From Escherichia phage Jk06, in sequence record DQ121662.1: a stretch of 46,072 nucleotides of DNA. One strand, given 5' to 3'. The first letter of the stretch is position 1. Each line of letters opens with the position of its first letter. Below the pieces are notes generated by a model that saw nothing but the letters and a program-made list of their open reading frames with translations, made no database searches and was not told the DNA's origin. Below are positions 5,381 to 32,000 of the stretch, one piece after another. The position numbers and the translations under genes are program-made.

Positions 5381-6158
5381 CCTCCGGTAAATATTTATGC
5401 CTTACGATTCGTACAGTCCGCTCACGATAGTAATCGCCGTACAAATCAACCTTACTCATCTTACCATATAAATGGTGTAGGATTTTATTGTCACCAATGT
5501 ATATGGCGGCGTGGTTGGTCTTCTCGCTCTGAATCTGCATCATAACCATTGAGCCAATTGGAATATCATTGCTTCTGACTAATTCGAACCCTTCTAACTC
5601 CCAATTATCATCGTAGATATTGTCAGGGTATTCATTGGTCCACCACTGATAATCTACGCGATAATCGTTAAGCTTAACACCGTGTAGCTTGTGAAATTCC
5701 ATAACCAAACCCCAGCAGTCGAAGCTGCCAAGACCCCATGGGCGACCAGCAAGCGGCATCTTTTCTGGCTGAATAATCCGTAAGTCCCCTTCAGGTATAG
5801 AAACAATAACATAAGGCAGCTCGCACTCATTGCAGCTGCAAATATCAGCTGCGCTTGGCCTAGTAGTAGCGCCATCACCAGTATGTGAATGTACAGCATA
5901 AACAACGCTTTCATTGTCCGAAATCTCCATGAATTCCATTGGGTCGAGAATGAATGATTGCTCTGGTGTTTTGGATACGTTGGTAATCCTGTGATACTTC
6001 TGCGCCATCCCCTTCTGAGTTACAACCCCGCAAGATTCTTGCGGGTAAACCTCGTTGGCGTGGCGAAATATTTCGATCTTAACTTTAGGCGTTAACATTA
6101 CCCTCTCCTTAGTTTTGGTTGGCTTTAGCTTGCAGGCTTGCAGCAGCGCAACCACCAA
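5352..6158 (-). CDS. tail assembly protein (lambda K-like; MPN/JAMM plus NlpC/P60-type domains); true start probably ATG near 6098
   Basis: HSHTGDGATTRPSAAD metalloprotease-like motif and Cys/His segment; the ORF track start overlaps the upstream L-like gene. Confidence 0.75.
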   Translation of the reverse strand: MVVALLQACKLKPTKTKERVMLTPKVKIEIFRHANEVYPQESCGVVTQKGMAQKYHRITNVSKTPEQSFILDPMEFMEISDNESVVYAVHSHTGDGATTRPSAADICSCNECELPYVIVSIPEGDLRIIQPEKMPLAGRPWGLGSFDCWGLVMEFHKLHGVKLNDYRVDYQWWTNEYPDNIYDDNWELEGFELVRSNDIPIGSMVMMQIQSEKTNHAAIYIGDNKILHHLYGKMSKVDLYGDYYRERTVRIVRHKYLPEDAGYDPERD

Positions 6159-6873
6159 AGTCTAACTGATTATTTTCTCCGAACCTTAGTTTGCACGCAC
6201 GAACCGTTCCGGCACAGAAGTCTTGCGATGGGTCAGTCACAGGCACGTTGTCCTTGTCGAAGTATCTATCACCCATATAGTTACATCCATTCCCTGATCG
6301 GTACTGATTGCGCTGAGCCCAATAACAAACTGACTGAACAAGTCTGGCCGGAATATAAATACCATCCATGTCCATTGGGCTGGTTAATTCAAATGAGGCC
6401 GTGTTGTAGTCAACCTGCTTAGGTCGCTCAATGAAGTAAACCAACTTGCGGTAATCCCCATCAGCAATGGTGCCATCTTCGTTAATATTCTCGCGAAGGG
6501 TGATCCAGATAGTAACCTTAGCCTGAACAAGACCGTTGTAAGTGCGGATAAGAGCCGAGATGTTTTGGTCAACGTTGGATACAACTAGTGTTACCTTGTT
6601 TGCCTTCCCGTCCGAAGTCATGTTAATACCCTGAATTCCAAAAGGCCTTGCGCCGTACTCTTCGCCACGGAAACTGATTGTCTTTGCTGGTAGGGTCTGG
6701 CCTGTTGATTGCGCCATCATAATTTCTTCAGGCGTGTAGCTGATGTTCTCCCCATGGAAGCGGTATGTTGGCGCCGAGAACTTGCTGCCATCAACTTCAA
6801 TTAGTGTAACAACCTCACCAGGGAACAAGCTTTGTAATTGATTCTCAAACTTAGTGCTTAATGGCGTAGCCAT
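6109..6873 (-). CDS. minor tail protein (lambda L-like)
   Basis: 254 aa ORF with a C-terminal Cys cluster; located between M-like and K-like genes; RBS GGAG upstream. Confidence 0.7.
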   Translation of the reverse strand: MATPLSTKFENQLQSLFPGEVVTLIEVDGSKFSAPTYRFHGENISYTPEEIMMAQSTGQTLPAKTISFRGEEYGARPFGIQGINMTSDGKANKVTLVVSNVDQNISALIRTYNGLVQAKVTIWITLRENINEDGTIADGDYRKLVYFIERPKQVDYNTASFELTSPMDMDGIYIPARLVQSVCYWAQRNQYRSGNGCNYMGDRYFDKDNVPVTDPSQDFCAGTVRACKLRFGENNQLDFGGCAAASLQAKANQN

Positions 6874-7294: not shown

Positions 7295-10200
7295 TTAACT
7301 ATAACCTCGCAAGAACTGGTAAGCCGTTCCGCCCTGCTGGAAGGACTGAGTAATCTCTTCCGCGATGATAACCCTGATACCAGATTCTAACTGTTTAGCG
7401 TCATTACCGCCACCACCGCCAAGACCTGTCTGAACGGTAACATTCACTCCACCAACATTAACGTTACTTCCACCAACAAGCCCGCCAGTCGCATAGCCAG
7501 GACCAGCACCAACCACTCCACCATTTGCGTATCCGCGCATTAACTTATAAAGGTTATCAACGCCAATCCTTGAGGTTGCCTCCTTCGTAAAGACGAATTC
7601 ACCTTTATGCACCGTGCCAGCTGGCTCGTACTTACCACCGTTTCCAGTATAACCGCCAGAAGCGAAACCAAATGCGCTACCAATAGAGCCAATTGCACCA
7701 CCACTACCGCCAAAACTGGAGATGGTTGATTCAATCGCCTTAATTAAAAGTAGCTGCGTTGCAATGCGTGCAATCTGCTTCAGAATCGATGCGGTAAACT
7801 CACGGAAGCTAGCTTCTCCAGTAGTTACCAGGTTTGTTATCTGGTCAGTCAATCCGTTAAAGGCACTCATGGCTAGCTCGGAACCAATCTGATTAAAGTT
7901 TGCCAATTCATCAGCCGTCTCAGCAAACGCAGATTTAACGCCAGCCAGCCAGTTACCACGTAATGCATCTTCCTGATTGTAGAAATTCTGACGAGCCTGA
8001 AGTAAAGCCTGGAAGTCAGTGTCATCTACGGAGCCACCTTTAGAAATTTGCTGGGCTTCTAGCGCCGCCAACTCACGCCGCCTTTCCGCTTCGCGCTGAG
8101 ATAATCCTGCTCCAACACTAATTGATGCCGCTTCAGCGTTAATCTGCCGAGTCTTCTTGATGTTGTCATCAAGAAGTTTATTGGCCCTTTCTTGCAGCAC
8201 AATCTGGTCGCCAATCTCAGCCTTCTCGCGAGCGAGTCCTAAGATTTTATCCTGCTGCAACAGTAATGATCGCTGTTGCTTTGTGATGGTTCCGTCTGCA
8301 AGCCTTTCATTAAGGATTGCAAACTTAGCTTCCTCCGCAAAAAGCTGCTTGCGTTCGTTACTGATAACATCACTAATCTGGCGGTGTTCCTGAAGAACCT
8401 TAAGCTGAGCCTGCAGAGCTAGAACGCCAGACTCATAACTTATAGTCAAATCCCTCTCTTCTTTTGCTCCAGATTTTGTCTTTTTACTTCTCTCCTCAAT
8501 TGCTTTAATCTCATCGGCCAAAGCCTTTCTTCTTGATTCTGAATCTCTATCAGAAGTTCCAGTTTGACTTTCTGAACCCTCTCCAACACTCAAGTAACCA
8601 GTCTCGCCCCTGCGAACCCTTGCATACCTATCAGCGATAGATTTAGCTAGCCTTATGTTTTCCTTTTCTATTGCGTCATTATCCTTCCTTAGTTGTTCGG
8701 CTATTCCATTACCAACGCCAGATGCTCCTGGTATCTTTTGTAAAGCCTCTATCCCGCGTATTACGAAATCATTTATTAGCTTGTCGCCAGTGCCAATTAT
8801 CAGTCTTATTTGCTCAATAGTCGCAGCTATAACGTCAGTAAATAGGTTTAGAGCTCCTATAGTCCTGTCACCTATAGCATCCCATGTGTCTGAAACGAAC
8901 TTACGGAAATCGCCCCAAGCCAATTCAAGAGGTGTAAGCGAGCCTTCAATCTGCTTTGTAACTGACTCATTTCTAGCTGCAAATATTTCTAAAGCTGCTG
9001 TTACTGCTGCTGTTTGCCCTTCCGTTTCTTTTAGGTTGTTAACTAGGGTCAGCTGCCCTTCGCTAAGAAAGTTAAATTGCTTATCTAACTCTATCAGCCC
9101 CTTAACTGGATCTTTTGCTATCTTATCAAAGTCAGATATTATTGATTTCCGCAGACCTTGAACTAACAGCTGAAAGGTTAGCAACAGACTTAGCTATTAA
9201 GTTAATCTGACTAACAGTAAGCCTTCCGTTTGATACTAGCGACTGGTAAATGTCACCAATAGAACCTTTTGTTGCCCTTGATGTTTCATTTAGCTGATCA
9301 GCGTAATCCTTGATAGCGGCAACTGATAAAGTCGACGACCTTCCAGTTTCAATTATTGCGTTATTAAGTTGCCTAACCTCAATAAATGAGTCGTAAGCGG
9401 CTTTACCAAGAACAGCTAATGAAGCAATTATCGCGCCACCAAATATAGTTGCAGCACGACCAAACCTTAAGATAGCCTCATCACCAAGAGTCCTAACATC
9501 AGCAAATGAACTTCTCAGCTCTCCTATTGATGATACATAATCTATAACTGCACCTTGCGCAGCTGATAATGTATTTGAAAATCCACCAAATGAATCTGTA
9601 ATCTGCGGTATTTGCTGGGTAAGCACCATAAATAAAGGCATACCGTTAGCAATCGAGCTAGTGATATCATTGATCTGTACAGGAAGGAACCTTAAGGCCT
9701 GATTGTACTGACCTGCCGATATCCCAGCCGCCTGAAACGCCCTACTTTGATTGGCTATAGCGTTAGTATTGTTACTTGATGCCTGTGTTATATCTATCTA
9801 TTATTGGTGCTGCCTGATCGCTAACTCCAAGCTGTGCCGCCCTTAACTTTAAGAACTCATCCCTACTTAATGTCGCTGCATCAGCCTGTGCTTGAAGCGA
9901 CCTAATAAATGATTGTGCTTGCCTCTCAGCGGACTCTTTATTTTTTGCAGCTTCTATAGCCGCCCTACCCTCCTCAGTTAATGCTGACCTAGACCTTATT
10001 AACCTATTTGTTTGCGTTTCTAATGCTTCACCAAGCCTGTAAAACTCAGCCTCTGGAACAACCCCTGCGGAGAAGGCTCTATCAAGAGAACTTGCTGCAT
10101 CTTGAAGTTTTCGCAATTTCGAAGCTGTTGGATCAATTGCCGACTGAAGCGACTGAAAAGCACTTCTCTGCTCAGAAAGATACCTTGCAGTGTCGCGAGC

Positions 10201-19716: not shown

Positions 19717-19760
19717 ATTATAAGCCATCCATGGCGATTATCTTTACCAATTCGTGCTAT
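19717..19760 (-). promoter_or_regulatory. promoter module variant (IR-like ATAGCACGAATTGGTAA, 22 nt, TATAAT)
   Basis: Reverse complement of 19744-19760 matches the repeated IR motif with one change; perfect TATAAT at 19717-19722 on the minus strand. Confidence 0.5.
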
Positions 19761-21323
19761 CTAACGCCAGCTAGCCTCATTAAGCGGGCTCTCGGATCGT
19801 CACTCAAGTTCAATTCACAGTTGATGGCCATTGTTGTCGTATCCACAATGTCATCATGGGGATGAGAATCGTCAGCAGTGAACGCCGAGAACTCGGTTAA
19901 TAGCGAGGTAAGCCATGGCGCAGAGTCAGGCAGAACTACGTTACCAGCTTTAATCTGTGGCAGTGCGCTCATCACCCTGGTTAACTTATCTGTATCTGGA
20001 ACGAAAGGCTCGATAGGAGTTCGCATTACCCGACCCGCCGACTGGATAAGTCCTATTCCAGACGCTTTCTTCTCGATAATAACCTTGCGCAATATACCAT
20101 CTGTCTTACTAGCTGCTCTATGCTTACTCTCAAAGTCCAGAAGAGTTTGCTCAAGTTCAGGTGCTTCCCATTTACCCCTTACCATATCGAGAAGATAAAG
20201 CCTGTTATCTTTGCGCCCCCATAGCTGGAATACTGAGTAGTCGCTATAACTCTTAGTAGTCATGGCAGTATCAGCCGTAATGAATCGGTAGTCATACTTG
20301 GCTGGAGGTCTGTTATTCTCATCGAGGCGAACAACCAATCTACGTTGATCAGGTTTCCACCCAGAGCTACTGGAGATTGTTGGTACTGGCTAAGGAATGT
20401 GTACGGATCTGAGTCCCACATTGCCATCAAGTCATGCACAGATTCCTTCTGCGGGAAGTAGCTGTAATACTTAACACCATCTCGCTCGACGTACTCGGAT
20501 GAAAGCACGTCCTTCTCGAACTGCTCACGAATCCAGTCAGGGAGTTCATTCACATATTCTTCAGTGACCAGCGCCGGTATCTTCACTACATCAAAGTCGA
20601 TACCCATACCACCAGAAGTCATGAACCACGTTGAATCCTGAGTATGAAGCCTTTGCTGAATTGACAGAATTGGCGTAGCTTTACCTTTAACGCTACTCGC
20701 CCTACGTGAGCGAATGGTATTTTTAAGTAAAACGTGGACAGCTTCTCGCCTTACCTTGCTGAGCATATCGTCTGGCTTGTCTGGGTCATCAAGCATCAAG
20801 CAACCGCTATAGGTTTCAGTAATATAACCGCCACGAGCGCCGGTAATCTGACCGCCAATTGCCTTAGATATCGCTTCGAACCTAACCTTTCCACTCTCGT
20901 CAAGAACCTGAATCTCGTCATCCTTGCACGTGCCGAACTTACAGGGCCATAGTTCCTGAAACTCACTGACTTTATAAGGTCGCGAACACGCTTAGAGTTG
21001 CGCTTCACCAGACTGTCAGAGAATGAGAGGCTCAGATTTCGCACCTTCTTTAGCTTAAGCATTGAATATACAGGGAAGTGTATTGAAGTAATCTCGGTCT
21101 TCCCGGCCCCAGGAGCCACGTTAATGATGGTATCCCTACGCTCGCCACTAATAACCTCGTCAATTATTCGGCAAAGGTACTTGTGATGCCAGTTAGGGAT
21201 GTATCGCTCTCCCTGGCTTAGCTGAAACCACACGCGAAGGAATGCCTCGAAGCTGTGAGTGGACAGCGCTTTAACTGCCAGCTTTTCGGCTGGCGTCATT
21301 TCTTCCCAAACTAATGTCTTCAT
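19757..21323 (-). CDS. terminase large subunit, frame interrupted twice (about 20260-20340 and 20796)
   Basis: N-terminal fragment has Walker A VAPGAGKTE; C-terminal fragment has a nuclease-type acidic motif; three overlapping track ORFs 20796-21323, 20260-20799, 19757-20338. Confidence 0.85.
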
Positions 21324-21836
21324 AGTTTATCCATTACAGAAGCCAGAGCGGCCTTCATCGCTTCTTCATCGTTCACTACGGCATTTGAAGCGTTATTGAT
21401 GTTAACCTCTTGCGGCTTATCAATACCAAGGTCTTTGCCAATAAGTCCAGGGTTGACGATGTTGTTAACACCCAACTGGTACTTCTGTTCAAAGATAACT
21501 GAGTCGACGAACTCCATAACTTCATCGAATCCTGGTGATGATCGCCATTTGCTAATAGCATTATGACCAACGCCGCAGAAAAGCTGGAATCCAGGTTATC
21601 GTAAATACCCTCGGCTTGTGAACAAGGTTTTCCGTTACGACACCCTGAAAGCTTGCTGTCTCGATAGCTTTAATTGCCTGCTCTTCAGCCCAGCTGAAAT
21701 ACCTTACAGCCATGTCGAATACCTGCTCGGGAGTGTATCTGTGGTTAATCTTAAGATTGGCAATGTCGCCATACTTCTTATTGTAAAGCTCCTTGAAGTT
21801 ACCAATCTTCTGGTGAATTTTTTTCTCTTCTGACAT
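21320..21836 (-). CDS. terminase small subunit (putative), frame interrupted near 21520-21570
   Basis: Track ORFs 21561-21836 and 21320-21517 immediately upstream of the large terminase gene; position-based call. Confidence 0.45.
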
Positions 21837-21935: not shown

Positions 21936-22121
21936 TCAAACGAGGGATACTTTATCAACGCTGACTTTGTGGACTGTCAGGTCAATCTTAAATGCTGCCT
22001 TTGCGGCTGCAACTGCTTCTTCAGGGCTTTTAGCAATGAACCTACCTTCGTAGGATTGCTGGCAAGATTTGCATTGCCGACCCATTAGGCGGGAAGTTAA
22101 ACGGACTTCGTAGTTATTCAC
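21936..22121 (-). CDS. hypothetical small protein with a CxxC pair
   Basis: 61 aa ORF downstream of the tRNA and followed by the terminator. Confidence 0.35.
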   Translation of the reverse strand: MNNYEVRLTSRLMGRQCKSCQQSYEGRFIAKSPEEAVAAAKAAFKIDLTVHKVSVDKVSLV

Positions 22122-22137
22122 TAGGATGCTCCATGTT

Positions 22138-22213
22138 TGGTGTTCCGCACTGGACTCGAACCAGTAACTGAGACTTAGGAGGTCTCTGCGTTATCCTGTT
22201 ACGCCAGCAGAAC
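22138..22213 (-). tRNA. tRNA-Arg (anticodon CCT), 76 nt with encoded CCA
   Basis: Hand-folded cloverleaf: 7 bp acceptor stem with one G-U pair, D-arm GCGT/ACGC, anticodon stem GAGAC/GTCTC with loop CTCCTAA, T-arm ACTGG/CCAGT with loop TTCGAGT, discriminator A, CCA. Confidence 0.75.
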
Positions 22214-22251
22214 TAGAATGAGTCCCGCTTACCGAATGCGGGGAGGTTTCA

Positions 22252-22292
22252 CAATCCTCGGAAGGTCCGGCCAATCCTCGGAAAGGTCCGGC
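22252..22292. repeat. tandem direct repeat, 2 x about 20 bp (CAATCCTCGGAA(A)GGTCCGGC)
   Basis: Two adjacent near-identical units directly upstream of the tRNA on the minus strand. Confidence 0.6.
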
Positions 22293-22488
22293 ATACACCA
22301 TTTGCGCTGGTGTAGTGGTATTTGCCTCGTATCTTTATCCAGCCCGGCTATCGGCTTGCATCTCCGCGATGCGCGTTACGGTCATTGCCGTCTACGTGGT
22401 TAATACTAACCACTTTTAACATTTTCGTCAAGCCATGACGACGAAATAAATCCACGTCAACATGCCAGCCAGGAACCAGATTGATAGC

Positions 22489-22704
22489 TCAGTCATAAAA
22501 TACCTCAAAGTAACCAAACTCAATGTCATTGCCATCTTTAACCATCTCTATACACCCATCTTCTGACTCACATTTAACCCAACCATATGCGGGTGATGAC
22601 AAAATGCTGTAAGATTTACCAGTTTTGAACTTCTTATCATTGTAAGACCCAATACATCTGACTTTCCCTAGTGATTTAGTCATAAATCTGCTCCCCATCT
22701 TCAC
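22489..22704 (-). CDS. hypothetical protein
   Basis: 71 aa ORF in a co-oriented cluster of small early genes. Confidence 0.4.
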   Translation of the reverse strand: MKMGSRFMTKSLGKVRCIGSYNDKKFKTGKSYSILSSPAYGWVKCESEDGCIEMVKDGNDIEFGYFEVFYD

Positions 22705-22915
22705 GCTTACCTACGCGACCAGCAAGATAGCCTGCAACCCAAACAAACTTCATCTTCTCGATGATTGTACTGACTGGGCTATGAAACTCACAGATAATCG
22801 CCTTCATGATGTCATTATCCTGCTTCTGCTTGCTTGTCAGCTTATCCACCGCCTCGTTAAGTTTCTTAGCTTGGGCGCGAACTGCATTAAATTGTGGTTG
22901 AGTAAGTCCGAACAT
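22676..22915 (-). CDS. hypothetical protein
   Basis: 79 aa ORF in a co-oriented cluster of small early genes. Confidence 0.4.
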   Translation of the reverse strand: MFGLTQPQFNAVRAQAKKLNEAVDKLTSKQKQDNDIMKAIICEFHSPVSTIIEKMKFVWVAGYLAGRVGKREDGEQIYD

Positions 22916-23055
22916 GATTAAGCCTTCTTGTAAGATTGAATATCGCCACCTAGGACTGCCTGCTGTGCCTTTGCTGATTCATAGCTGTCATACATTCGTT
23001 TGTGCATTACGCTATTGAACTTGCCAGTGTAGTACGTGTGAATCCATATCATGGG

Positions 23056-23349
23056 TTATTCTCCAGCGATGTAAAATTCAGCGTCGAGATAAAATGCAGG
23101 CTGAAACAATTCTCTCTCATCGTCATATTCATCATATCCAGTATATACGTAACCATTCCTAACCTGTTCCGCTTGAAGCTCACCATCACATACCCACAAG
23201 CAAACGAAGCTACCAATTTTAATTGCTTCATCAATAGATATGCGCCTCATTGTTTGTTTCTTACTCCCCATGTGAATTGCTCGCTTGCCGTCACCACCTT
23301 CAGAATCGTTGGCTGCCAATAAGTTGCCAGTGAATACGTTAATCTTCAT
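23056..23349 (-). CDS. hypothetical protein
   Basis: 97 aa ORF in a co-oriented cluster of small early genes. Confidence 0.4.
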   Translation of the reverse strand: MKINVFTGNLLAANDSEGGDGKRAIHMGSKKQTMRRISIDEAIKIGSFVCLWVCDGELQAEQVRNGYVYTGYDEYDDERELFQPAFYLDAEFYIAGE

Positions 23350-23486
23350 TTCTTCTCCTCGCGCTCATGCCACATGTTCATCAACTCAAAGTACGCCATT
23401 ACTTCATCCCCATCTTTAGCCTCATCCATCATCTTTTTACACCATTCACTTGGCAACTCATCATATCCACACATTTAATCTTTCCT

Positions 23487-23551
23487 CGTCTCATTTCGAT
23501 AAAGTAATGGTAACGCATCCTTGCGATGGATGTTTAGCAATTTGTGCTATT
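23487..23551 (-). promoter_or_regulatory. early promoter module (IR plus leader variant TATCGAAATGAGA)
   Basis: IR TTTAGCAATTTGTGCTATT at 23533-23551 on the plus strand (reverse orientation), leader-like element and RBS before a small minus-strand ORF starting near 23475. Confidence 0.45.
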
Positions 23552-23846
23552 TGTTGCTCCAGCTATCAAGATAATGTTTAGGTCCGTTGCGATACTTGTC
23601 TATAAGTTCCTGGACATGTGCACCCCTTTGATCATGGAATTCTATGGCCTTCTGAAGCGATACAATGGCCTCATTGATGTCGGTAGGGTAATCCTTATGT
23701 CGTGTTCGAATGCCGCTGCACAGTACCTTTTTGATGGCATGCTGTAGTGCCGGGTCCGTTACGCCAAATGCTGCGATGACGCGATATACATCAACCGTAG
23801 TCTTGGTGCCGTCCAGGCCAATGATCTCTTTTTCGTACTTACTCAT
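23547..23846 (-). CDS. hypothetical protein
   Basis: 99 aa ORF; translationally coupled to the small repeat-containing ORF upstream (TGAGATATG junction). Confidence 0.4.
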   Translation of the reverse strand: MSKYEKEIIGLDGTKTTVDVYRVIAAFGVTDPALQHAIKKVLCSGIRTRHKDYPTDINEAIVSLQKAIEFHDQRGAHVQELIDKYRNGPKHYLDSWSNK

Positions 23847-23849
23847 ATC

Positions 23850-23984
23850 TCAATCCTCAAATTCAAAGTCAAATTCAAAGTCAAAGTCAACATATGCAGT
23901 CATTGTATCAGCGTCGCATACAGCAATGTAGCCGTGACTGTAATCAAGAATCAAATCTTCAACAGGAATCATATAGTAGTACAT
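23850..23984 (-). CDS. small hypothetical protein with DFDFEFDFEF tail encoded by a hexanucleotide repeat
   Basis: 44 aa ORF; plus-strand repeat AAATTCAAAGTCAAATTCAAAGTCAAAGTCAA at 23859-23890. Confidence 0.3.
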   Translation of the reverse strand: MYYYMIPVEDLILDYSHGYIAVCDADTMTAYVDFDFEFDFEFED

Positions 23985-24102
23985 ATCTCAACCCTCATTA
24001 TAGTGCCGCCATGCGTCTTCTGCATTAACATGGCGTATCTCTCGTCTACGTAATGCAGGAGCATATCGATACCCCTGCTGCTGAATGTGTGTTCGTAGAT
24101 TG

Positions 24103-24336
24103 TCACTTGTATTGGCTATCCAGTTGGCAGCCTGATAGTGCCGAACAAATCTGCTCGTACTCAAGCCAGGCCAAGTCCTCTTCCCACGGCAGTATATCTT
24201 CAAACTCCTGATTTCGAATCTGATTTACAACCTCTGTAAGCGATTCTGACGCGCTAAACATCTTGCGGCTAAGGCAATGCATTAGTATAGCCCTAATCTC
24301 GGCAGCATGCTCTTCTGACAGGTTAATGGTAATCAT
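24103..24336 (-). CDS. hypothetical protein (overlaps ORF 23988-24203; possibly one interrupted gene)
   Basis: 77 aa ORF; the downstream 71 aa ORF overlaps it in another frame. Confidence 0.35.
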   Translation of the reverse strand: MITINLSEEHAAEIRAILMHCLSRKMFSASESLTEVVNQIRNQEFEDILPWEEDLAWLEYEQICSALSGCQLDSQYK

Positions 24337-24386
24337 GTTAGCTTCCTATCGTTTAGTTGTCATTTGCTTCAATTATGATACTGAAT

Positions 24387-24617
24387 TTACTCGCTTCTAC
24401 GCCGACCAGTGTAACCCTTGCCATTCTCAATCCCCTCAGCCGCCTGAATAAGCGCCGCCGCCAGTTTGCGCGCTTGGTAGGCAGTATAGTGAGCAAGCGC
24501 ACATCCGTCGCCATGGTTACCGAAGTTGATATCAATACTCACGATGCCTTCGTAATGTACTGAGGTTGACACCTCTGTGCGAGCGCCTGCGAAATCTTCA
24601 ATAATTACAGCTTTCAT
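24387..24617 (-). CDS. hypothetical protein
   Basis: 76 aa ORF with an IR promoter-like motif at 24674-24692 and an RBS upstream. Confidence 0.4.
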   Translation of the reverse strand: MKAVIIEDFAGARTEVSTSVHYEGIVSIDINFGNHGDGCALAHYTAYQARKLAAALIQAAEGIENGKGYTGRRRSE

Positions 24618-24673
24618 GGTTATTTCCTCTTTGTTGTTGATAGGGTAATCATAGCTGACTACCCAATTTATTG

Positions 24674-24692
24674 TTTAGCAATTTGTGCTATA
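24674..24692 (-). promoter_or_regulatory. inverted-repeat promoter/operator motif copy
   Basis: TTTAGCAATTTGTGCTATA on the plus strand, i.e. AATAGCAC-N4-TGCTAA oriented with minus-strand transcription. Confidence 0.45.
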
Positions 24693-25235
24693 TTCGCCAT
24701 TCAGGAGAGTTTTCGCTTTCCGGTAGAACTGTATGGCCTTCTCCACCTCATCGGCATCATAGCCATGGATTGTTGTTTGCGTTGGCACGTAGTTTGAGCG
24801 TGGCGCGTCGGATCGGTACTGACTGCACCAGTTTTGCACGTCGTCCTTATCCATCCCAACCAGGGCCGGATGAACATAAATCTTATCGCCAATGAGGCAA
24901 ACAATTCCCGCCTCCTGTAGTTCTGGGATGATGTTATTTGTCAGGTCATGCATAATCCCTTCGCGCCCGACGAATGGCTGGACCTTTCGGATTGCCTCGT
25001 ATAGAGATCGAATGCCAACCACTCCATTCCAGCCCTGGCGGCTAATCCTGCTCACTACGACACCGTATTTGTAGCTCAACTTGACGCACAGCATCTCTTC
25101 GGCGCTGGGCCAGAAATTGAATGATTGGCGGTATCCATTAGTATTGATTGCCACACGAAGTGGCGGCAGGTTATCTTGCCTGGCGACTTCCATCACCTGG
25201 TCATCAGTTAACTTATCTTCGTCGAAATCAAACAT
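24675..25235 (-). CDS. short paralogue of the 28217-29808 gene (shares its N-terminal and C-terminal domains, lacks the central P-loop region)
   Basis: N-terminus MFDFDEDKLTDDQVMEVARQDNLPPLRVAINTNGYRQS matches MFDFNDDKLTVEQVMAVAAQDGLPPLRVAINANGYRQS; segment GVVGIRSLYEAIRKV...CLIGDKIYVHP matches GVVGLRSLYEAARKV...CLIGDKVYINP. Confidence 0.5.
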   Translation of the reverse strand: MFDFDEDKLTDDQVMEVARQDNLPPLRVAINTNGYRQSFNFWPSAEEMLCVKLSYKYGVVVSRISRQGWNGVVGIRSLYEAIRKVQPFVGREGIMHDLTNNIIPELQEAGIVCLIGDKIYVHPALVGMDKDDVQNWCSQYRSDAPRSNYVPTQTTIHGYDADEVEKAIQFYRKAKTLLNGEYSTNC

Positions 25236-25777
25236 TAGTTAAACTCCTTGATCATCTCTTGATACATGCGGATAGCCTTAACTGCGCCAGTCAGCTCATC
25301 ACCTTCAAAATCCAGTACGTTAGGTGATAACTTAAGCAAGCGAGATTTGAACTTCTCAATAACAGCCCTCTCCTTTTCTTCTTTCTCTCTTTGTTTTGCT
25401 TTTGGCTCCTTAAGCCCCTCGGTGAGATGGATTAGCAGGTATTTATCAGCACCATCGCCATCATACTGGCGGGGCGTGGTATCTTCACCATCCGCATCAA
25501 TCCAGATGAATTGATAACGGGCGATATACTTAGCCTCACGCAACTCTCTCATTCGTGACAATGTATTATGAATGTATGAGTTCTTTAACTCACTCAACTT
25601 CCGCTCTCCAAGGTTGATAATATCCCCGGTTTTATCATCAGTCTCCATTTCCGGGTAATCATGACCTCTAATTTGTCGGTAAATATCTCGAACTGGAACC
25701 TTGAACTCCTTATCTTCTGACTGGAGTGCCTTTTTAGCCATGAATCGAATTACTTCACCTAAGGTCGTTTTGCTCAT
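25235..25777 (-). CDS. hypothetical protein (first gene of a leftward early operon)
   Basis: 180 aa ORF with RBS GAGAGGAA; TATAGT and CATCGAAACGAGG leader at about 25800-25830; stop overlaps the start of the next gene. Confidence 0.5.
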   Translation of the reverse strand: MSKTTLGEVIRFMAKKALQSEDKEFKVPVRDIYRQIRGHDYPEMETDDKTGDIINLGERKLSELKNSYIHNTLSRMRELREAKYIARYQFIWIDADGEDTTPRQYDGDGADKYLLIHLTEGLKEPKAKQREKEEKERAVIEKFKSRLLKLSPNVLDFEGDELTGAVKAIRMYQEMIKEFN

Positions 25778-26487
25778 GATGATTCCTCTCGTTGATTGTT
25801 GTTTGTTGCCTCGTTTCGATGAAATGACTATAGCAAAGATTTACGTGTCTATAAATGTATTTTTTTGTTTATTTTAAAATTGATACGCTTTTTTCCCTGC
25901 ATGCCGCATCGTTGCTGGGTGTGTACAGGCGTCTACGTGCGTCTACATATAGATGAGGGGGTTCTAGCTATATCCCCCTATATTTTCCTACAAGGTAGTA
26001 CAATTCCTACAGTGTAGGAATAAAAATAGAAATTTAAGCAAACCAACCTATATAGTAGCGTACAGATGATACGCTATATATACATAATACTATATATAAT
26101 AATAATAATAGTCTAAGTCCTTTATATATAAGGATATTTTAGTGTATATGGATTGTATCAAGGCGTATAAATTGTAAATGTGGATACGGTCGACAATCGG
26201 TAGACAGCGGACTACGCGTATATAAAAGAAGTCTCTCCGCGAGCGATAAAACCAACCAACTATTTGATCCAAACCTCCTTTCATTCAATCCATCCATCCA
26301 TCATTGCCAAACTGGCAACAATCAATAAACCTGTTGCACTCGATGAAATATTGCTTTATGTGTAATAGTCATGCTAATCATCGCAATGCCTGCAACAATC
26401 CATAAATCTGACGAATAGCACTTTTTGCTAAAGACAAATCCACCATGACTGGCTATAGTTTGCCAATCAACAGAGAGGAGAAGAAAC
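25778..26487. other. AT-rich intergenic region with iterons, palindromes and microsatellites between divergent early operons (candidate origin / control region)
   Basis: GCGTCTAC x2, palindrome ATTCCTACAGTGTAGGAAT, (ATA)n, TCCTTTATATATAAGGA, (CCAT)3, TTGCCAAACTGGCAA; no ORF of 60 aa or more. Confidence 0.5.
26414..26459 (+). promoter_or_regulatory. early promoter module (IR plus TATAGT)
   Basis: AATAGCACTTTTTGCTAA at 26414-26431, TATAGT at 26454-26459, RBS GAGGAG and ATG at 26488. Confidence 0.5.
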
Positions 26488-26706
26488 ATGAAAGCGATTA
26501 TTATCAACAACGAAATTAGGTACGACGAAGATTCAATGAGCCTTGCCGAACTTGGCTATCAGATTGGTGAGGAGGTGGAAGTTTACGAGATTGAAGGCTT
26601 CTACATGATGAGTTTAAAGGATCATGTATATGTTGATGGTACTCTTGCAATCTTTCAAGGTGAACAGTTTGTTGTTAGTAATGAAGAAATCAAGGTGGTA
26701 GCATGA
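26488..26706 (+). CDS. hypothetical protein
   Basis: 72 aa ORF with RBS; first gene of a rightward early operon. Confidence 0.45.
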   Translation: MKAIIINNEIRYDEDSMSLAELGYQIGEEVEVYEIEGFYMMSLKDHVYVDGTLAIFQGEQFVVSNEEIKVVA

Positions 26707-26942
26707 AGATTCGCTGCACCAACGTTATCCAAAGCACGGATAAGGATGTATTAACACCATTCATAAAAGGCTCCGTATACGACGCCGAGCCTCTAATCAT
26801 TAATGGTAAAACAATCCCGAACGAGTGGGTTATTAATGGCGCTGAGCGACCTCACAAGCACGATTCCGGCTGGATTGCTATCGCAGCATGGAAGGTTGGA
26901 ATGTTTATCCCTGGTGTTGCAACTTTTGATGAGGTTAAGTAA
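26703..26942 (+). CDS. hypothetical protein
   Basis: 79 aa ORF with ATGA overlap to the upstream gene. Confidence 0.45.
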   Translation: MKIRCTNVIQSTDKDVLTPFIKGSVYDAEPLIINGKTIPNEWVINGAERPHKHDSGWIAIAAWKVGMFIPGVATFDEVK

Positions 26943-27095
26943 ATGCTAAAGCCATCTGACTTGAACTATTACGATCTAGAAACCATAGCCAAGTACAGCG
27001 GTAAGGGTTGGCCTGTTGGTGACTACTTCAAAGAAGATTTGATTGAGAGCTTCAACATCGTCCAGAAGGAAATTGCAAAAGCAGCAAAGAAATAG
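26943..27095 (+). CDS. hypothetical small protein (50 aa)
   Basis: ATG overlapping the upstream stop (TAAATG); not in the ORF track because it is shorter than 60 aa. Confidence 0.35.
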   Translation: MLKPSDLNYYDLETIAKYSGKGWPVGDYFKEDLIESFNIVQKEIAKAAKK

Positions 27096-27153
27096 CACGA
27101 ATTGCTAAAGCCCTTCGGGGCTTTTACTGTATATTCATCTCATCGAAACGAAA
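27091..27153 (+). promoter_or_regulatory. early promoter module (IR, terminator hairpin, TATATT, CATCGAAACGAAA leader)
   Basis: IR at 27091-27108, hairpin GCCCTTCGGGGC, TATATT at 27130-27135, leader at 27141-27153, ATG at 27174. Confidence 0.55.
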
Positions 27154-27173
27154 AGTACTAAAGGAAAATAATC

Positions 27174-27527
27174 ATGGCTACTACTATCACAAAGAATTGG
27201 GTTAGCAGTGATAACAAATTATTTCAAGCTCGCGTGAAGGATGGAGTTGAGCAGATTAAAGTCGATGGTAAATGGCAAAACCTAACTGAGCGGGGGCGTT
27301 ACATCAAGACTAAGACTCTTTATGTCACATTTGTTAACCATAAATCAGGAGTATCAAAGTCATTCAAGCAAGGTCGTCGCTATCAGGTAGAAATGACCGC
27401 ATCTCTTGGACAGAACGCTGGTAAAATATTTGATGAAGATGGTGACTCATGGACGCTGATTCGCTCTGAAGATGTTGGATTTACAACTGTTTGCGGAACT
27501 TATAAATTCGAGAGCCAATACAAATGA
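27174..27527 (+). CDS. hypothetical protein
   Basis: 117 aa ORF with RBS AAGGAAA. Confidence 0.45.
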   Translation: MATTITKNWVSSDNKLFQARVKDGVEQIKVDGKWQNLTERGRYIKTKTLYVTFVNHKSGVSKSFKQGRRYQVEMTASLGQNAGKIFDEDGDSWTLIRSEDVGFTTVCGTYKFESQYK

Positions 27528-27718
27528 ATGAGACAGTAAGAATTTACATAACAAAAGATTCAATTTATTGCAAGTCTATACAACACGGCACTAAGTACAG
27601 ATACTGCAAAGATAGAGGCTATTTTTGCGTGGTTGATTTCATTACTAGAAAAGGGTTGCTTGAAACTTTCATAGATAAAATGCCTAGTAATAAGCTATCA
27701 TCTGGCGAAAGGTTTTAA
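27524..27718 (+). CDS. hypothetical protein
   Basis: 64 aa ORF overlapping the upstream stop. Confidence 0.4.
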   Translation: MNETVRIYITKDSIYCKSIQHGTKYRYCKDRGYFCVVDFITRKGLLETFIDKMPSNKLSSGERF

Positions 27719-27720
27719 TT

Positions 27721-27766
27721 AATAGCACTTTTTGCTAATGACACTACCCGCTTCGGCGGGTATATT
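27721..27766 (+). promoter_or_regulatory. early promoter module (IR, hairpin, TATATT)
   Basis: AATAGCACTTTTTGCTAA at 27721-27738, hairpin CCCGCTTCGGCGGG, TATATT at 27761-27766. Confidence 0.5.
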
Positions 27767-27803
27767 TGTTTCCATCAAGAAGACAAACACTAAGGTGAAC
27801 AAA

Positions 27804-27920
27804 ATGAAAAACATCTCTAAAGCAGTTGATGCGGTAATGGAACAAGTAATTAAGTTTGGTTTCTTTGGCTTCATGGGCGCAATCGCTGTTGTAGTTGGCA
27901 AATGTCTGGTTGGTCTTTAA
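27804..27920 (+). CDS. small hydrophobic protein (38 aa, single predicted transmembrane helix)
   Basis: ATG at 27804 with RBS TAAGGTG; sequence MKNISKAVDAVMEQVIKFGFFGFMGAIAVVVGKCLVGL. Confidence 0.35.
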   Translation: MKNISKAVDAVMEQVIKFGFFGFMGAIAVVVGKCLVGL

Positions 27921-27982
27921 TGGCACTTTTTGCTAAAGACCTTAACAACAAAAATTGATATATTCTCTTCATCGAAACGAAA
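27919..27982 (+). promoter_or_regulatory. early promoter module (IR, TATATT, CATCGAAACGAAA leader)
   Basis: IR at 27919-27936, TATATT at 27959-27964, leader at 27970-27982. Confidence 0.55.
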
Positions 27983-28002
27983 TACATTAAAAGGGCTAAA
28001 AA

Positions 28003-28182
28003 ATGGATATCATGACTACTATCGAAAACATCAAACCTGGCATGATGGTAAAAATGGGGCCGCTGTTCCGCAAAGTACTTCACGTTGACCTTAAGGAGAA
28101 TATCATCACCGTAATGATTAGAGGTCGCGCAAAGCTGTATCTTCCTCATAAAGGTCAGATGATTGAAGTTCGTATCAAGTAA
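28003..28182 (+). CDS. hypothetical small protein (59 aa)
   Basis: ATG at 28003 with RBS AAGGG; followed by hairpin AGCCCCTTCGGGGGC. Confidence 0.35.
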   Translation: MDIMTTIENIKPGMMVKMGPLFRKVLHVDLKENIITVMIRGRAKLYLPHKGQMIEVRIK

Positions 28183-28216
28183 ATAGTCAAGCCCCTTCGG
28201 GGGCATTTAGAGAGAG

Positions 28217-29808
28217 ATGATAATGTTTGATTTTAATGATGACAAATTGACTGTTGAACAAGTAATGGCTGTTGCCGCTCAGGATGGATTACCTCCTTTA
28301 CGTGTTGCTATTAATGCGAACGGTTATCGCCAGAGCGCATCATTCTGGAAAGCTCCGGTTGAGATTGATTCTACTGGCGACAAGTATCCTGTTATCTCGC
28401 TTGGTAACGACTATGATGTAGTTGGCAAACTATCAAGCAACATTGCTCGTTCTGTTCAGTTTCCTGAATCATCTGCTTATATGCACTTCCTTGGTTGCAT
28501 CTCGGCAGCTATGTTAGGTCGCTTTACGGTTGAGTATCACGGAACTCAACAACCAACATCACTGTATGTAGTGACCAGCCAGCCTCCATCAACTGGTAAA
28601 TCTGCCATTAACTCGCTGTCTCTGGCTCCAATGATTGCAGAGACTGAGCGACTAAACGATCTGCGTAAGCGTGACCGTAAAAAGATTATGGCCAAGCTGT
28701 CGGCTCTGGCTAAAGAAATGAAGCAGGAGAAGTCGCCTTCTGAGATGGCTGGTTTGTTTGAGGAGAAGGAGGAGCTGGAAGATAAGCTCGAGAAACTTTG
28801 CGACATCGTATTCCCTGTATCTGATACTACTCCTGAAGGTCTGGCACGCATTAACCATCGTCAGGGTAGCTTCGCTGTCATCTCGGATGAGGCGACGAGC
28901 GTCAACTCACTGCTGGGCATGACCTATGGTGATGGAACAAAGAAAACAAACAGCGAACTGGTACTTAAGGCCTGGGATGCTGGTAACGTATCTATCGCGC
29001 GTGCGAACGCAGAGAACAACATGAGCTTTATTGCTATGGGGTGTATTTCTGTAATTGCGCAGGATGAAACAATAGTCGCAATCATGAATGCTGGTGCTCG
29101 CGGTATTGGTGTATCCGAACGTTTCTTGCTTGTGCGTGAAAAGTCATTCCTTGGTGAGCGTGTTTTCGTCGATGATAATGGCGAGTCAACATATGAGCCG
29201 ATTGACGGAGCGTGAAGGGCTGATTACTTCCGTCTTTGTTCATGAAATTATGAGTGAGCAAGATGTTAAGTTGACTATTAGTAACTCAGCAATGAAGCAC
29301 CTTAACCGTGCTCGACAGGAAAATGGAGCCACACCTTGCAGATGGCGGTAAGTATTCACACACAATGCTGCGCGGCGCGTTAGGTAAAATGGATAAACAG
29401 GTAATTCGCATTGCTGCAGTTCTTCACACTATCCGTAACTGGTTTAACCCCAATGGCGGTAGTCCGCAGAAGTCCAGGGAGATTGAACTGGAAACCATGC
29501 AAGAGGCTTTGTTGATGTTTGGAGAACTTAGTAAGACTTACTTATCCTCAGCTAACGCAGCTGGTCATGCTGGCGATAACGCTGAGATGAACAAGTTAAT
29601 TGATATCCTTATCAAGCAAGGCAAGAACAGTAAAGGAGTTGTGGGTTTGCGTTCACTTTATGAAGCTGCGCGTAAGGTTCGACCTTTCGAGTCACAGGCT
29701 GGTGTTATGGCTAAAATTAAAGACCACTTACTGCCGATGCTTGATGAGAAAAACTATACCTGCCTGATTGGTGACAAGGTATATATCAATCCACGGCTGC
29801 TGGGGTAA
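28217..29808 (+). CDS. P-loop NTPase-like protein (about 530 aa), reading frame interrupted between about 29215 and 29310; long paralogue of 24675-25235
   Basis: Track ORFs 28217-29215, 29088-29351 and 29308-29808 are contiguous; Walker A-like SQPPSTGKSA; N- and C-terminal segments match the short paralogue. Confidence 0.55.
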
Positions 29809-31923: not shown

Positions 31924-32000
31924 TCTATTTCCTATCTCGTTGTCGATGAAACAAATATAGCGCCTTTCGGCGCTATAGTCTTTAGCAAAAAGTGCTATTT
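31924..32000 (-). promoter_or_regulatory. early promoter module (IR, hairpin, TATATT, CATCGACAACGAG leader)
   Basis: IR TTTAGCAAAAAGTGCTATTT at 31981-32000 (reverse orientation); hairpin AGCGCCTTTCGGCGCT. Confidence 0.5.

Follow-up and report, generated by a model that had tools for sequence, protein, structure and literature searches.

Gene content, promoter-like sites and mosaicism of the leftward small-gene arm of the Rogunavirus phage Jk06

What is encoded by the run of small genes at positions 22489-25777, minus strand, of Escherichia phage Jk06, and does it form an early cluster devoted to host takeover and anti-defence, as an original prediction made from the DNA letters had proposed? 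Here, the locus was analyzed within the whole 46,072-nucleotide stretch of record DQ121662.1 (the window). A megablast search of positions 22000-28300 against the phage records of GenBank matched 64 records, with Rogunavirus phages of E. coli O157 at the top. AHP42 was the closest, with 97.7% nucleotide identity across 91% of the searched region, followed by C119, BECP10, AHP24, phiJLA23 and others with approximately 96% identity and lower coverage. In this Rogunavirus (T1-like, Drexlerviridae) genome, positions 22489-25777 are the leftward arm of small genes, an ordinary and largely known feature of a well-sampled genus, already catalogued in databases with no function attached. The equivalent stretch of AHP42 is a run of hypothetical proteins between the annotations of a tRNA-Arg and a "DNA helicase". 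Rogunavirus O157 phages have been described as having circularly permuted genomes with 74 to 81 open reading frames (ORFs), more than half of which are conserved hypotheticals, and one Arg-tRNA (PMC4070988). Overall, we consider it reasonably probable that the arm is an accessory and regulatory one, in which real genes behind three promoter-like sites comprise a conserved head, conserved small proteins and swappable cassettes, and which may be expressed early and may encode host-binding proteins.

The ORF list shows 12 tightly packed ORFs of 42 to 186 amino acids (m1 to m12) on the minus strand; the original prediction had correctly located the ORFs, although its count of at least eight and its range of 44 to 180 amino acids were too low and too narrow. 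As it had also proposed, the cluster lies between a tRNA and an AT-rich region. A 710-bp AT-rich intergenic region separates it from a similar plus-strand set, likewise anticipated, of seven ORFs (p1 to p7) that runs into the DUF3987 helicase gene. The features of both arms are as follows.

22138-22213, minus strand: tRNA-Arg(CCU) (anticodon CCT in the DNA), downstream of the cluster on the same strand, found with ARAGORN and Rfam
22489-22683, minus strand: m1, 64 amino acids from an ATG, or 71 from an upstream GTG (ORF to 22704)
22676-22915, minus strand: m2, 79 amino acids, phrog_303
22918-23052, minus strand: m3, 44 amino acids, phrog_3955
23056-23349, minus strand: m4, 97 amino acids, acidic, phrog_11452, a narrowly distributed cassette
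23346-23474, minus strand: m5, 42 amino acids, acidic, phrog_1312
23547-23846, minus strand: m6, 99 amino acids, matching the C-terminal parts of phrog_2452 and phrog_17613
23850-23984, minus strand: m7, 44 amino acids, net charge -12, phrog_16612, a variable cassette
23969-24106, minus strand: m8, 45 amino acids, with a GTG start that overlaps the m9 stop codon, phrog_12148 (expectation value [E] 3e-31)
24103-24336, minus strand: m9, 77 amino acids, acidic, DUF7180, phrog_8335
24387-24617, minus strand: m10, 76 amino acids, phrog_13316, a rare cassette gene
24675-25235, minus strand: m11, 186 amino acids, paralogous to both ends of the DUF3987 helicase of the phage
25235-25777, minus strand: m12, 180 amino acids, DUF7174, phrog_4841, the first gene of the arm
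25778-26487: AT-rich intergenic region
26488-26706, plus strand: p1
26703-26942, plus strand: p2
26943-27095, plus strand: p3
27174-27527, plus strand: p4
27524-27718, plus strand: p5
27804-27920, plus strand: p6, a 38-amino-acid membrane peptide
28003-28182, plus strand: p7

Whether these short ORFs are genes at all is the first part of the question. All 12 ORFs on the minus strand, and six of the seven on the plus strand, matched PHROG families over essentially their full length (E from 7e-17 to 2e-98), every matched family being labelled "unknown function". A Shine-Dalgarno-like sequence lies upstream of most ORFs, and several have overlapping stop and start codons. The ratio of nonsynonymous to synonymous substitution rates (dN/dS) was computed against e4/1c, Sadiya and C119 where the relatives were divergent enough, a set that excludes m7, m10 and p5. 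It was 0.03 to 0.18 for m2 (0.06 to 0.07), m3 (0.04 to 0.05), m5 (0.03), m6 (0.04), m8 (0.13 to 0.16), m9 (0.16 to 0.18), m12, p2, p3 and p4, and 0.4 to 0.6 for m1 and m11 (0.45 to 0.59 for the latter). Most of the small genes are under purifying selection. Because the profile matches, the ribosome-binding sites and coupled codons, and dN/dS values well below 1 come together, these comparisons firmly indicate that the 12 minus-strand ORFs, those of 42 to 45 amino acids included, are genuine protein-coding genes. The opposite possibility, that they are for the most part accidental or wrongly called frames within a spacer separating the packaging genes from the replication genes, could draw on the mere 42 to 45 codons of several ORFs, on the annotated starts of m1, m7 and m8, which vary between records, and on the frameshifts present in other genes of the window. 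It is nevertheless highly improbable, since every minus-strand ORF has a full-length profile match, dN/dS stays at 0.03 to 0.18 even for the short m3, m5 and m8, and translation signals with coupled stop and start codons are in place.

Next, the distribution of the genes was examined with a presence/absence matrix, generated by tblastn against ten related loci. All 12 minus-strand ORFs have AHP42 orthologues with 89 to 100% protein identity, and the order of AHP42 gp63-gp74 is retained, on one strand and opposite the helicase arm. The orthologous Rogunavirus block (AHP42 gp63-gp74, Rogue1_001-0012, JK06 JK_42-47) holds the same genes in the same order between the tRNA-Arg/terminase and the AT-rich region, all annotated as hypothetical (PMC4070988). 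Ten genes (m2, m3, m5, m8, m9, p2, p3, p4, p6 and p7) are present in all close relatives, and m2 was found in 825 records of Klebsiella, Escherichia, Shigella and Salmonella phages, each covering at least 80% of the protein; for m4 and m10 the records numbered 23 and 17. Other genes come and go as cassettes among phages with flanks approximately 96 to 98% identical. Among the loci compared, m10 is confined to AHP42, C119 and phiJLA23, and p5 to C119 and phiJLA23; m7 occurs in four of seven close relatives and is absent from C119, phiJLA23, e4/1c and Sadiya; p1 is shared with AHP42 and AKS96 and has a diverged copy in e4/1c; m4 is truncated or absent in e4/1c, Sadiya and DTL; and m1 is absent from Sadiya and DTL. 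Allelic replacement was also seen, m6 being either 100% or approximately 60% identical, and m11 only 50% identical in AKS96. The combination in Jk06 is itself mixed: m10 and the m12 allele are as in AHP42, p5 is as in C119 and phiJLA23, and p4 is nearer to C119 (95%) than to AHP42 (70%). The arm therefore mixes family-core genes, such as m2, a small protein encoded throughout Drexlerviridae, with rare cassettes (m4, m7, m10 and the variants of m6).

Synonymous divergence from one and the same relative varies approximately 20-fold between neighbouring genes, and recombination breakpoints are therefore placed at the scale of single genes. Compared with AHS24, AKS96, e4/1c and UDF157lw, m10 is an exact insertion/deletion with its junctions in the promoter leader (…TATCAAC) and in the AAACGAnAGGA ribosome-binding context of the next gene. 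Since these breakpoints fall exactly at leader and ribosome-binding-site sequences, conserved regulatory sequences may serve as exchange junctions.

The general layout, namely helicase, small genes, AT-rich region, DUF7174 gene, small genes and terminase, is kept from Rogunavirus to Braunvirinae and Tempevirinae, with the helicase-side small genes pointing away from the AT-rich intergenic region. The equivalent arm of Sadiya (5405-6708) carries a VUT-family (queuosine-precursor transporter-like) protein and a 276-amino-acid uncharacterised protein, and the equivalent arms of FritzSarasin (833-1606 and 8605-9147) carry a Dcm-like cytosine methyltransferase and a polynucleotide kinase, all absent from Jk06. 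Because of these larger extra genes, it is clear that the arms accept diverse accessory cargo.

The original prediction described the products as free of recognisable motifs, which is mostly right; the exceptions are DUF7174 in m12, DUF7180 in m9 and segments derived from the helicase in m11. Residues 1 to 48 of m11 are 69% identical to residues 1 to 48 of the phage's own 527-residue DUF3987 helicase, encoded on the opposite arm, and residues 66 to 127 are 50% identical to helicase residues 464 to 527. The ATPase core of the helicase (residues 81 to 430, with Walker A/B) is wholly absent, so that m11 cannot be a helicase, and the Pfam DUF3987 family was not matched. DUF3987 proteins have been characterized as helicases of 5'-3' polarity, which carry a primase-associated domain at the N terminus and a small domain at the C terminus (PMC11724360). 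In contrast to such helicases, AgaPH for example, m11 lacks the core and has, in addition, a conserved C-terminal helix with no counterpart in the helicase. These alignments identify m11 as a stand-alone copy of the terminal accessory parts of the helicase, joined with the ATPase core left out. Homologues over the full length were found in 105 phage records and 290 protein clusters, and m11 evolves relatively fast, as its dN/dS range indicates.

A structure model of m11, built with 37 homologues (predicted local distance difference test [pLDDT] 82), consists of a helical bundle that packs against a winged-helix-like unit, followed by a disordered linker and the conserved C-terminal helix. Its top fold matches were ORC/Cdc6-like lid plus winged-helix domains, and the model resembles that end of ORC/Cdc6-type AAA+ initiators which comprises the lid and the winged helix; a profile search against the PDB gave nothing significant for m11. 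The helicase origin would point to a role in DNA replication or regulation over anti-defence. The m11 orthologue of UDF157lw carries the label "HEPN", which we rejected: the sole R-x4-H motif (R91-H96) has a histidine that is not conserved in a 37-sequence alignment, and the fold matches are lid plus winged-helix domains, not a HEPN bundle.

The other member of the head, m12, matched DUF7174 (PF23796) in Pfam with an E of 4e-44 and 150.5 bits against a cut-off of 27, and full-length matches were also found in FritzSarasin, DTL, AKS96 and Sadiya. The position of this gene is conserved across four Drexlerviridae subfamilies, including Tempevirinae and Braunvirinae, and it opens the arm, preceded by near-consensus promoters, in Rogunavirus, Sadiya, DTL and FritzSarasin. 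It was found in 188 phage records and in two related loci of IMG/VR, and its alleles among close relatives are either approximately 99% or 38% identical. The m12 model (pLDDT 75.7) has an alpha/beta N-terminal domain and a C-terminal helical hairpin; a profile search against the PDB returned nothing significant, and a literature search found no papers on DUF7174 or DUF7180.

We then considered how the arm may be transcribed. Three promoter-like sites with -10 elements of the sigma-70 type are predicted, the first without a repeat, ahead of m12-m11, and the other two as repeat modules ahead of m10-m6 and m5-m1. These sites, with the copies of the motif ATAGCACnnnTTGCTAA in both arms, are as follows.

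25827-25855, minus strand: repeat-less sigma-70-type promoter (TTTATA, 17-nucleotide spacer, TGcTATAGT) with an A/T-rich stretch upstream, ahead of m12-m11
24675-24691, minus strand: ATAGCACnnnTTGCTAA copy upstream of m10, overlapping the end of m11
24648-24691, minus strand: promoter module (repeat ATAGCACAAATTGCTAA, 21 nucleotides, TATGAT) overlapping the last codons of m11
23534-23550, minus strand: ATAGCACnnnTTGCTAA copy upstream of m5, overlapping the end of m6
23507-23550, minus strand: promoter module (repeat ATAGCACAAATTGCTAA, 21 nucleotides, TACCAT) with the m6 stop codon inside the repeat
26415, 27092, 27722 and 27920, plus strand: ATAGCACnnnTTGCTAA copies in the plus arm

The statement of the original prediction that several genes follow promoter modules of their own thus holds, copies of ATAGCACnnnTTGCTAA preceding m10, m5 and genes of the plus arm. 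In the window, 14 copies were found with at most two mismatches, against 0.65 expected by chance; they are always oriented with local transcription, and the remaining ones are scattered across the genome beyond both small-gene arms. Aligned copies show the order ATAGCACnnnTTGCTAA, approximately 22 nucleotides, a TATAGT-like -10, a conserved ATCGAAACGA leader, a ribosome-binding site and ATG. The repeat is a perfect dyad, TAGCA-N5-TGCTA, with 5-bp arms and a 10-bp centre-to-centre spacing. In TLS, a 21-nucleotide repeat, aaATAGCACnnnTTGnTAAAA, has been described from 21 sites, and its presence in T1, Rtp and Rogue1 has been pointed out; roles as a stoperator, an enhancer or an UP-element have been proposed (PMC11447400). 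The window copies agree with this Drexlerviridae repeat in consensus, orientation with transcription and position upstream of start codons (PMC11447400), and add to the TLS description a fixed distance to the TATAGT-like -10, a G+C hairpin that most copies have in their spacer, and the ATCGAAACGA leader. Because the 14 copies are spread genome-wide, also precede other transcription units and belong to a family-wide repeat, the element is promoter-associated throughout the genome and the family and is no mark of early genes.

In the approximately 22-nucleotide spacer between ATAGCACnnnTTGCTAA and the -10 there is usually a short G+C hairpin (GCCCCTTCGGGGC and CCCGCTTCGGCGGG are two of them); the modules at 27092-27135, 27722-27766 and 31955-31998 are examples. 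In some modules the hairpin is followed by a run of T, so that they are scored as intrinsic terminators overlapping the promoter, and the annotation of AHP42 places a promoter and a terminator at one and the same position. A repeat-less sigma-70-type promoter equivalent to that of m12 precedes the DUF7174 gene in e4/1c, in C119, AHS24, AKS96 and Sadiya (with identical sequence), in DTL and in FritzSarasin, where it is a perfect consensus (TTGACA-16-TATAAT).

This arrangement suggests another explanation, in which the arm is a regulatory and replication module: DUF7174 would bind TAGCA-N5-TGCTA, m11 would regulate helicase loading, m9 would be a small repressor, and the rest would be passengers. 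DUF7174 and the repeat are each reported from several Drexlerviridae lineages (PMC11447400 for the repeat), and DUF7174 is always the first gene, behind a repeat-less, near-consensus host promoter. Conservation within DUF7174 is highest along a polar helix, SYIxNTxSRM, its predicted C-terminal helical hairpin could dimerise, the repeat is a perfect 5-bp dyad with 10 bp from centre to centre, and m11 has the ORC/Cdc6-like similarity described above. We nevertheless judge this explanation unlikely, since co-occurrence inside one virus family is no independent evidence, m12 alleles are just 38% identical while the repeat is nearly invariant, and further candidate DNA-binding proteins are encoded elsewhere in the genome. 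The core of the idea, that DUF7174 could be the factor that reads the dyad approximately 22 nucleotides upstream of the -10 in most units while m11 tunes helicase loading, is given a slim chance; if true, the link between DUF7174 and the repeat would amount to a simple transcription switch of T1-like phages driven by an early protein.

As described above, the favoured explanation is an accessory and regulatory arm. Its conserved head, m12 and m11, would act on phage DNA transactions beside the AT-rich control region, and m11 may bind whatever the helicase termini bind (primase, DNA or loader) and thereby modulate the initiation of replication. The arm would be transcribed early by the host RNA polymerase, and the variable, often acidic small proteins would bind host proteins, in takeover or anti-defence, and be dispensable in the laboratory. 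Several observations weigh against parts of this account. Searches of PHROGs, Pfam, NCBIfam, PADLOC and the PDB revealed no homology of any product to a known anti-defence, defence or takeover protein. Structure prediction with a fold search, the check put forward with the original prediction, covers two of the 19 products, and while m11 gave the lid plus winged-helix matches, the m12 model had no significant fold match. The winged helix of m11 is acidic overall (isoelectric point of 5.2), so that DNA binding is not assured. With regard to timing, no transcriptome of a T1-like phage was found in the PhageExpressionAtlas paper, the same repeat module is found ahead of other transcription units, and the region of large ORFs has sigma-70-like promoters as well. 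The arm is also co-oriented with, and directly upstream of, the tRNA, the terminase and the downstream large ORFs, a single terminator-like site (21907-21891) alone separating it from them.

Since both promoter types occur elsewhere in the genome, the large-ORF region included, timing is not readable from the sequence, and we dropped promoter type as a guide to it. Early expression of the arm appears plausible. Among the Arg codons of the large ORFs, AGG is the one used most often (115 of 396; 15.4 per 1000 codons), and its frequency drops to about half in the two small-gene arms (7.2 per 1000), which agrees weakly with expression that precedes the phage tRNA or does not depend on it. The tRNA-Arg(CCU) matches the codon usage of the phage, and codon supply is a sufficient explanation for its presence.

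As to anti-defence, the original prediction set such roles against housekeeping functions, and none of the products matched a housekeeping phage family in Pfam, PHROGs, NCBIfam, PADLOC or the PDB. NCBIfam and PADLOC searches of the ten largest products gave no matches, and the 19 small products, concatenated and searched against the PDB, gave one chance match at an E of 1.7. A literature search found nothing on Rogunavirus escape mutants or anti-defence genes. Small, mostly uncharacterised genes next to a genome control region are a feature of T7, with class I genes such as ocr, and of T5, with its pre-early genes. The T5 genes are described in 10.64898/2026.01.13.699316. The Jk06 arm resembles these regions as a small-gene cluster by a control region, but it has no homology to their genes, and part of it is conserved family-wide.

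A precedent also exists within the family. Bas11 Gp54, a non-essential protein 66 residues in length that has its own promoter, directly activates the CapRelSJ46 defence, and Bas11 deletions that remove Gp54 plus its neighbours are viable (PMC11578894). A search of small ORFs with PDB 9axb located the homologues SECphi27 Gp19 and FritzSarasin bas04_0056 (E 1e-15 to 5e-20), which sit in the helicase-proximal arm, the counterpart of p1 to p7; in Bas11, SECphi27 and FritzSarasin, as in the plus arm here, small hypothetical genes occupy the stretch from the central intergenic region to the DUF3987 helicase. No Gp54 homologue was detected among the 19 products (phmmer against the PDB), in the window (tblastn with Gp54 and Gp19, E > 0.5) or in the Rogunavirus loci examined. 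Gp54 is a real precedent in the family for the original prediction, yet it is no evidence on these particular genes.

It has to be considered, then, whether the arm is purely an anti-defence and host-takeover island, in which essentially all the small proteins inhibit defence systems or host machinery. Such an island would agree with the mosaic presence/absence and allelic replacement among near-identical phages, with the very acidic mini-proteins (m7, net -12 in 44 amino acids; p1, net -11 in 72), with the lack of housekeeping matches, and with the dispensable Gp54 of Bas11, which interacts with CapRel and comes from the equivalent arm of related phages (PMC11578894). We regard it as doubtful, since the presence of m2 in 825 Drexlerviridae records and the conserved position of DUF7174 are more in keeping with core functions than with arms-race genes, m11 originates from a replicative helicase, known anti-defence homologues are missing here, a Tunavirus scanned with DefenseFinder yielded no anti-defence genes (PMC13164509), and the "antirestriction protein" label of m7 comes without a shown basis. 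That label, present in one record, rests on similarity to an AKS96 product that is called hypothetical in the RefSeq entry of AKS96. By analogy with the systems above, an anti-defence or takeover role is plausible and reasonable for the variable cassettes, and unsupported for the conserved genes.

The locus also has a wider meaning. T1-like phages frequently contaminate laboratories and are candidates for the biocontrol of E. coli O157; approximately half of their genes are unannotated, and this arm accounts for a large share of that fraction. If the cassettes are indeed host-interaction or anti-defence factors, they would help to explain differences in host range among near-identical phages, and would add to the small phage proteins that inhibit or trigger bacterial immunity, like Gp54 of Bas11. 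Two leads emerge from the analysis: m11 as a core-less copy of the helicase, and DUF7174 as a protein possibly linked to the family-wide promoter repeat.

Regarding the remaining products, m4, m5, m7, m9 and p1 are strongly acidic, and p6 is the only small product with a transmembrane segment. A domain of approximately 75 residues in m6 recurs in 5089 representative protein clusters by profile search, alone or at the end of larger proteins; ten fused partners showed no significant Pfam domain, and no PDB relative of the m6 domain was found. Another homologue search with m6 gave 13 matches with neither names nor Pfam domains. The record label "30S ribosomal protein S24e" for m6 has no support in Pfam, PHROGs or NCBIfam, and the label "transposase" for m3 is unsupported by Pfam or PHROGs. 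In Rogue1, m3 is fused to m2, hence the label "fusion protein" in records. Residues 1 to 43 of m9 matched DUF7180 in Pfam (E 6e-7). The sequence pattern and a "CopG" label in another record suggest that the N terminus of m9 is possibly ribbon-helix-helix-like; no ribbon-helix-helix family of Pfam matched at E < 0.1. For m1, phrog_10885 aligned at residues 8 to 71 and a GGGGAG ribosome-binding site precedes the ATG; the start is most likely this ATG at 22683, giving 64 amino acids. The acidic tail of m7, DFDFEFDFEFED, with the residues DFDFEF, is encoded by a 12-nucleotide tandem repeat at 23857-23884. The gene measures 117 nucleotides in AHP42, 123 in AKS96 and 135 here, and this difference in length among relatives suggests that the repeat expands and contracts.

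Finally, the sequence on either side of the cluster was inspected. An Rfam scan of the whole window found the tRNA and nothing else. Three genes expected to be essential (19757-21836 and 28217-29808) are frameshifted with respect to close relatives: the small terminase lies in two frames (junction near 21576-21592), the large terminase in three (junctions near 20883-20967 and 20332), and the DUF3987 helicase also in three (junctions near 29235 and 29320), the latter being 99.3% identical to that of AHP42 with one deletion and three insertions. These frameshifts are probably sequencing or assembly errors, so that the window is of draft quality; the small-gene cluster is free of such breaks. In the spacer between m1 and the tRNA (22214-22488, minus strand), there is an apparent remnant of an HNH homing endonuclease (ORF 22348-22455, translation ...VVSINHVDGNDRNAH...), and intact HNH genes are found elsewhere in relatives (AHP42 gp02, DTL gp12). 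The same spacer contains a sigma-70-like promoter directed at the tRNA (22431-22403, TTGACG-17-TAGTAT) and a near-identical direct repeat of approximately 18 to 19 nucleotides (ggacct(t)tccgaggattg) around 22250-22290. On the other side, the AT-rich region carries a 34-nucleotide imperfect direct repeat (26300-26333 and 26377-26410), a 14-nucleotide hairpin pair (25985-25998 and 26007-26020) and an alternating AT palindrome (26085-26104), and several GenBank records of relatives start or stop inside this intergenic region.

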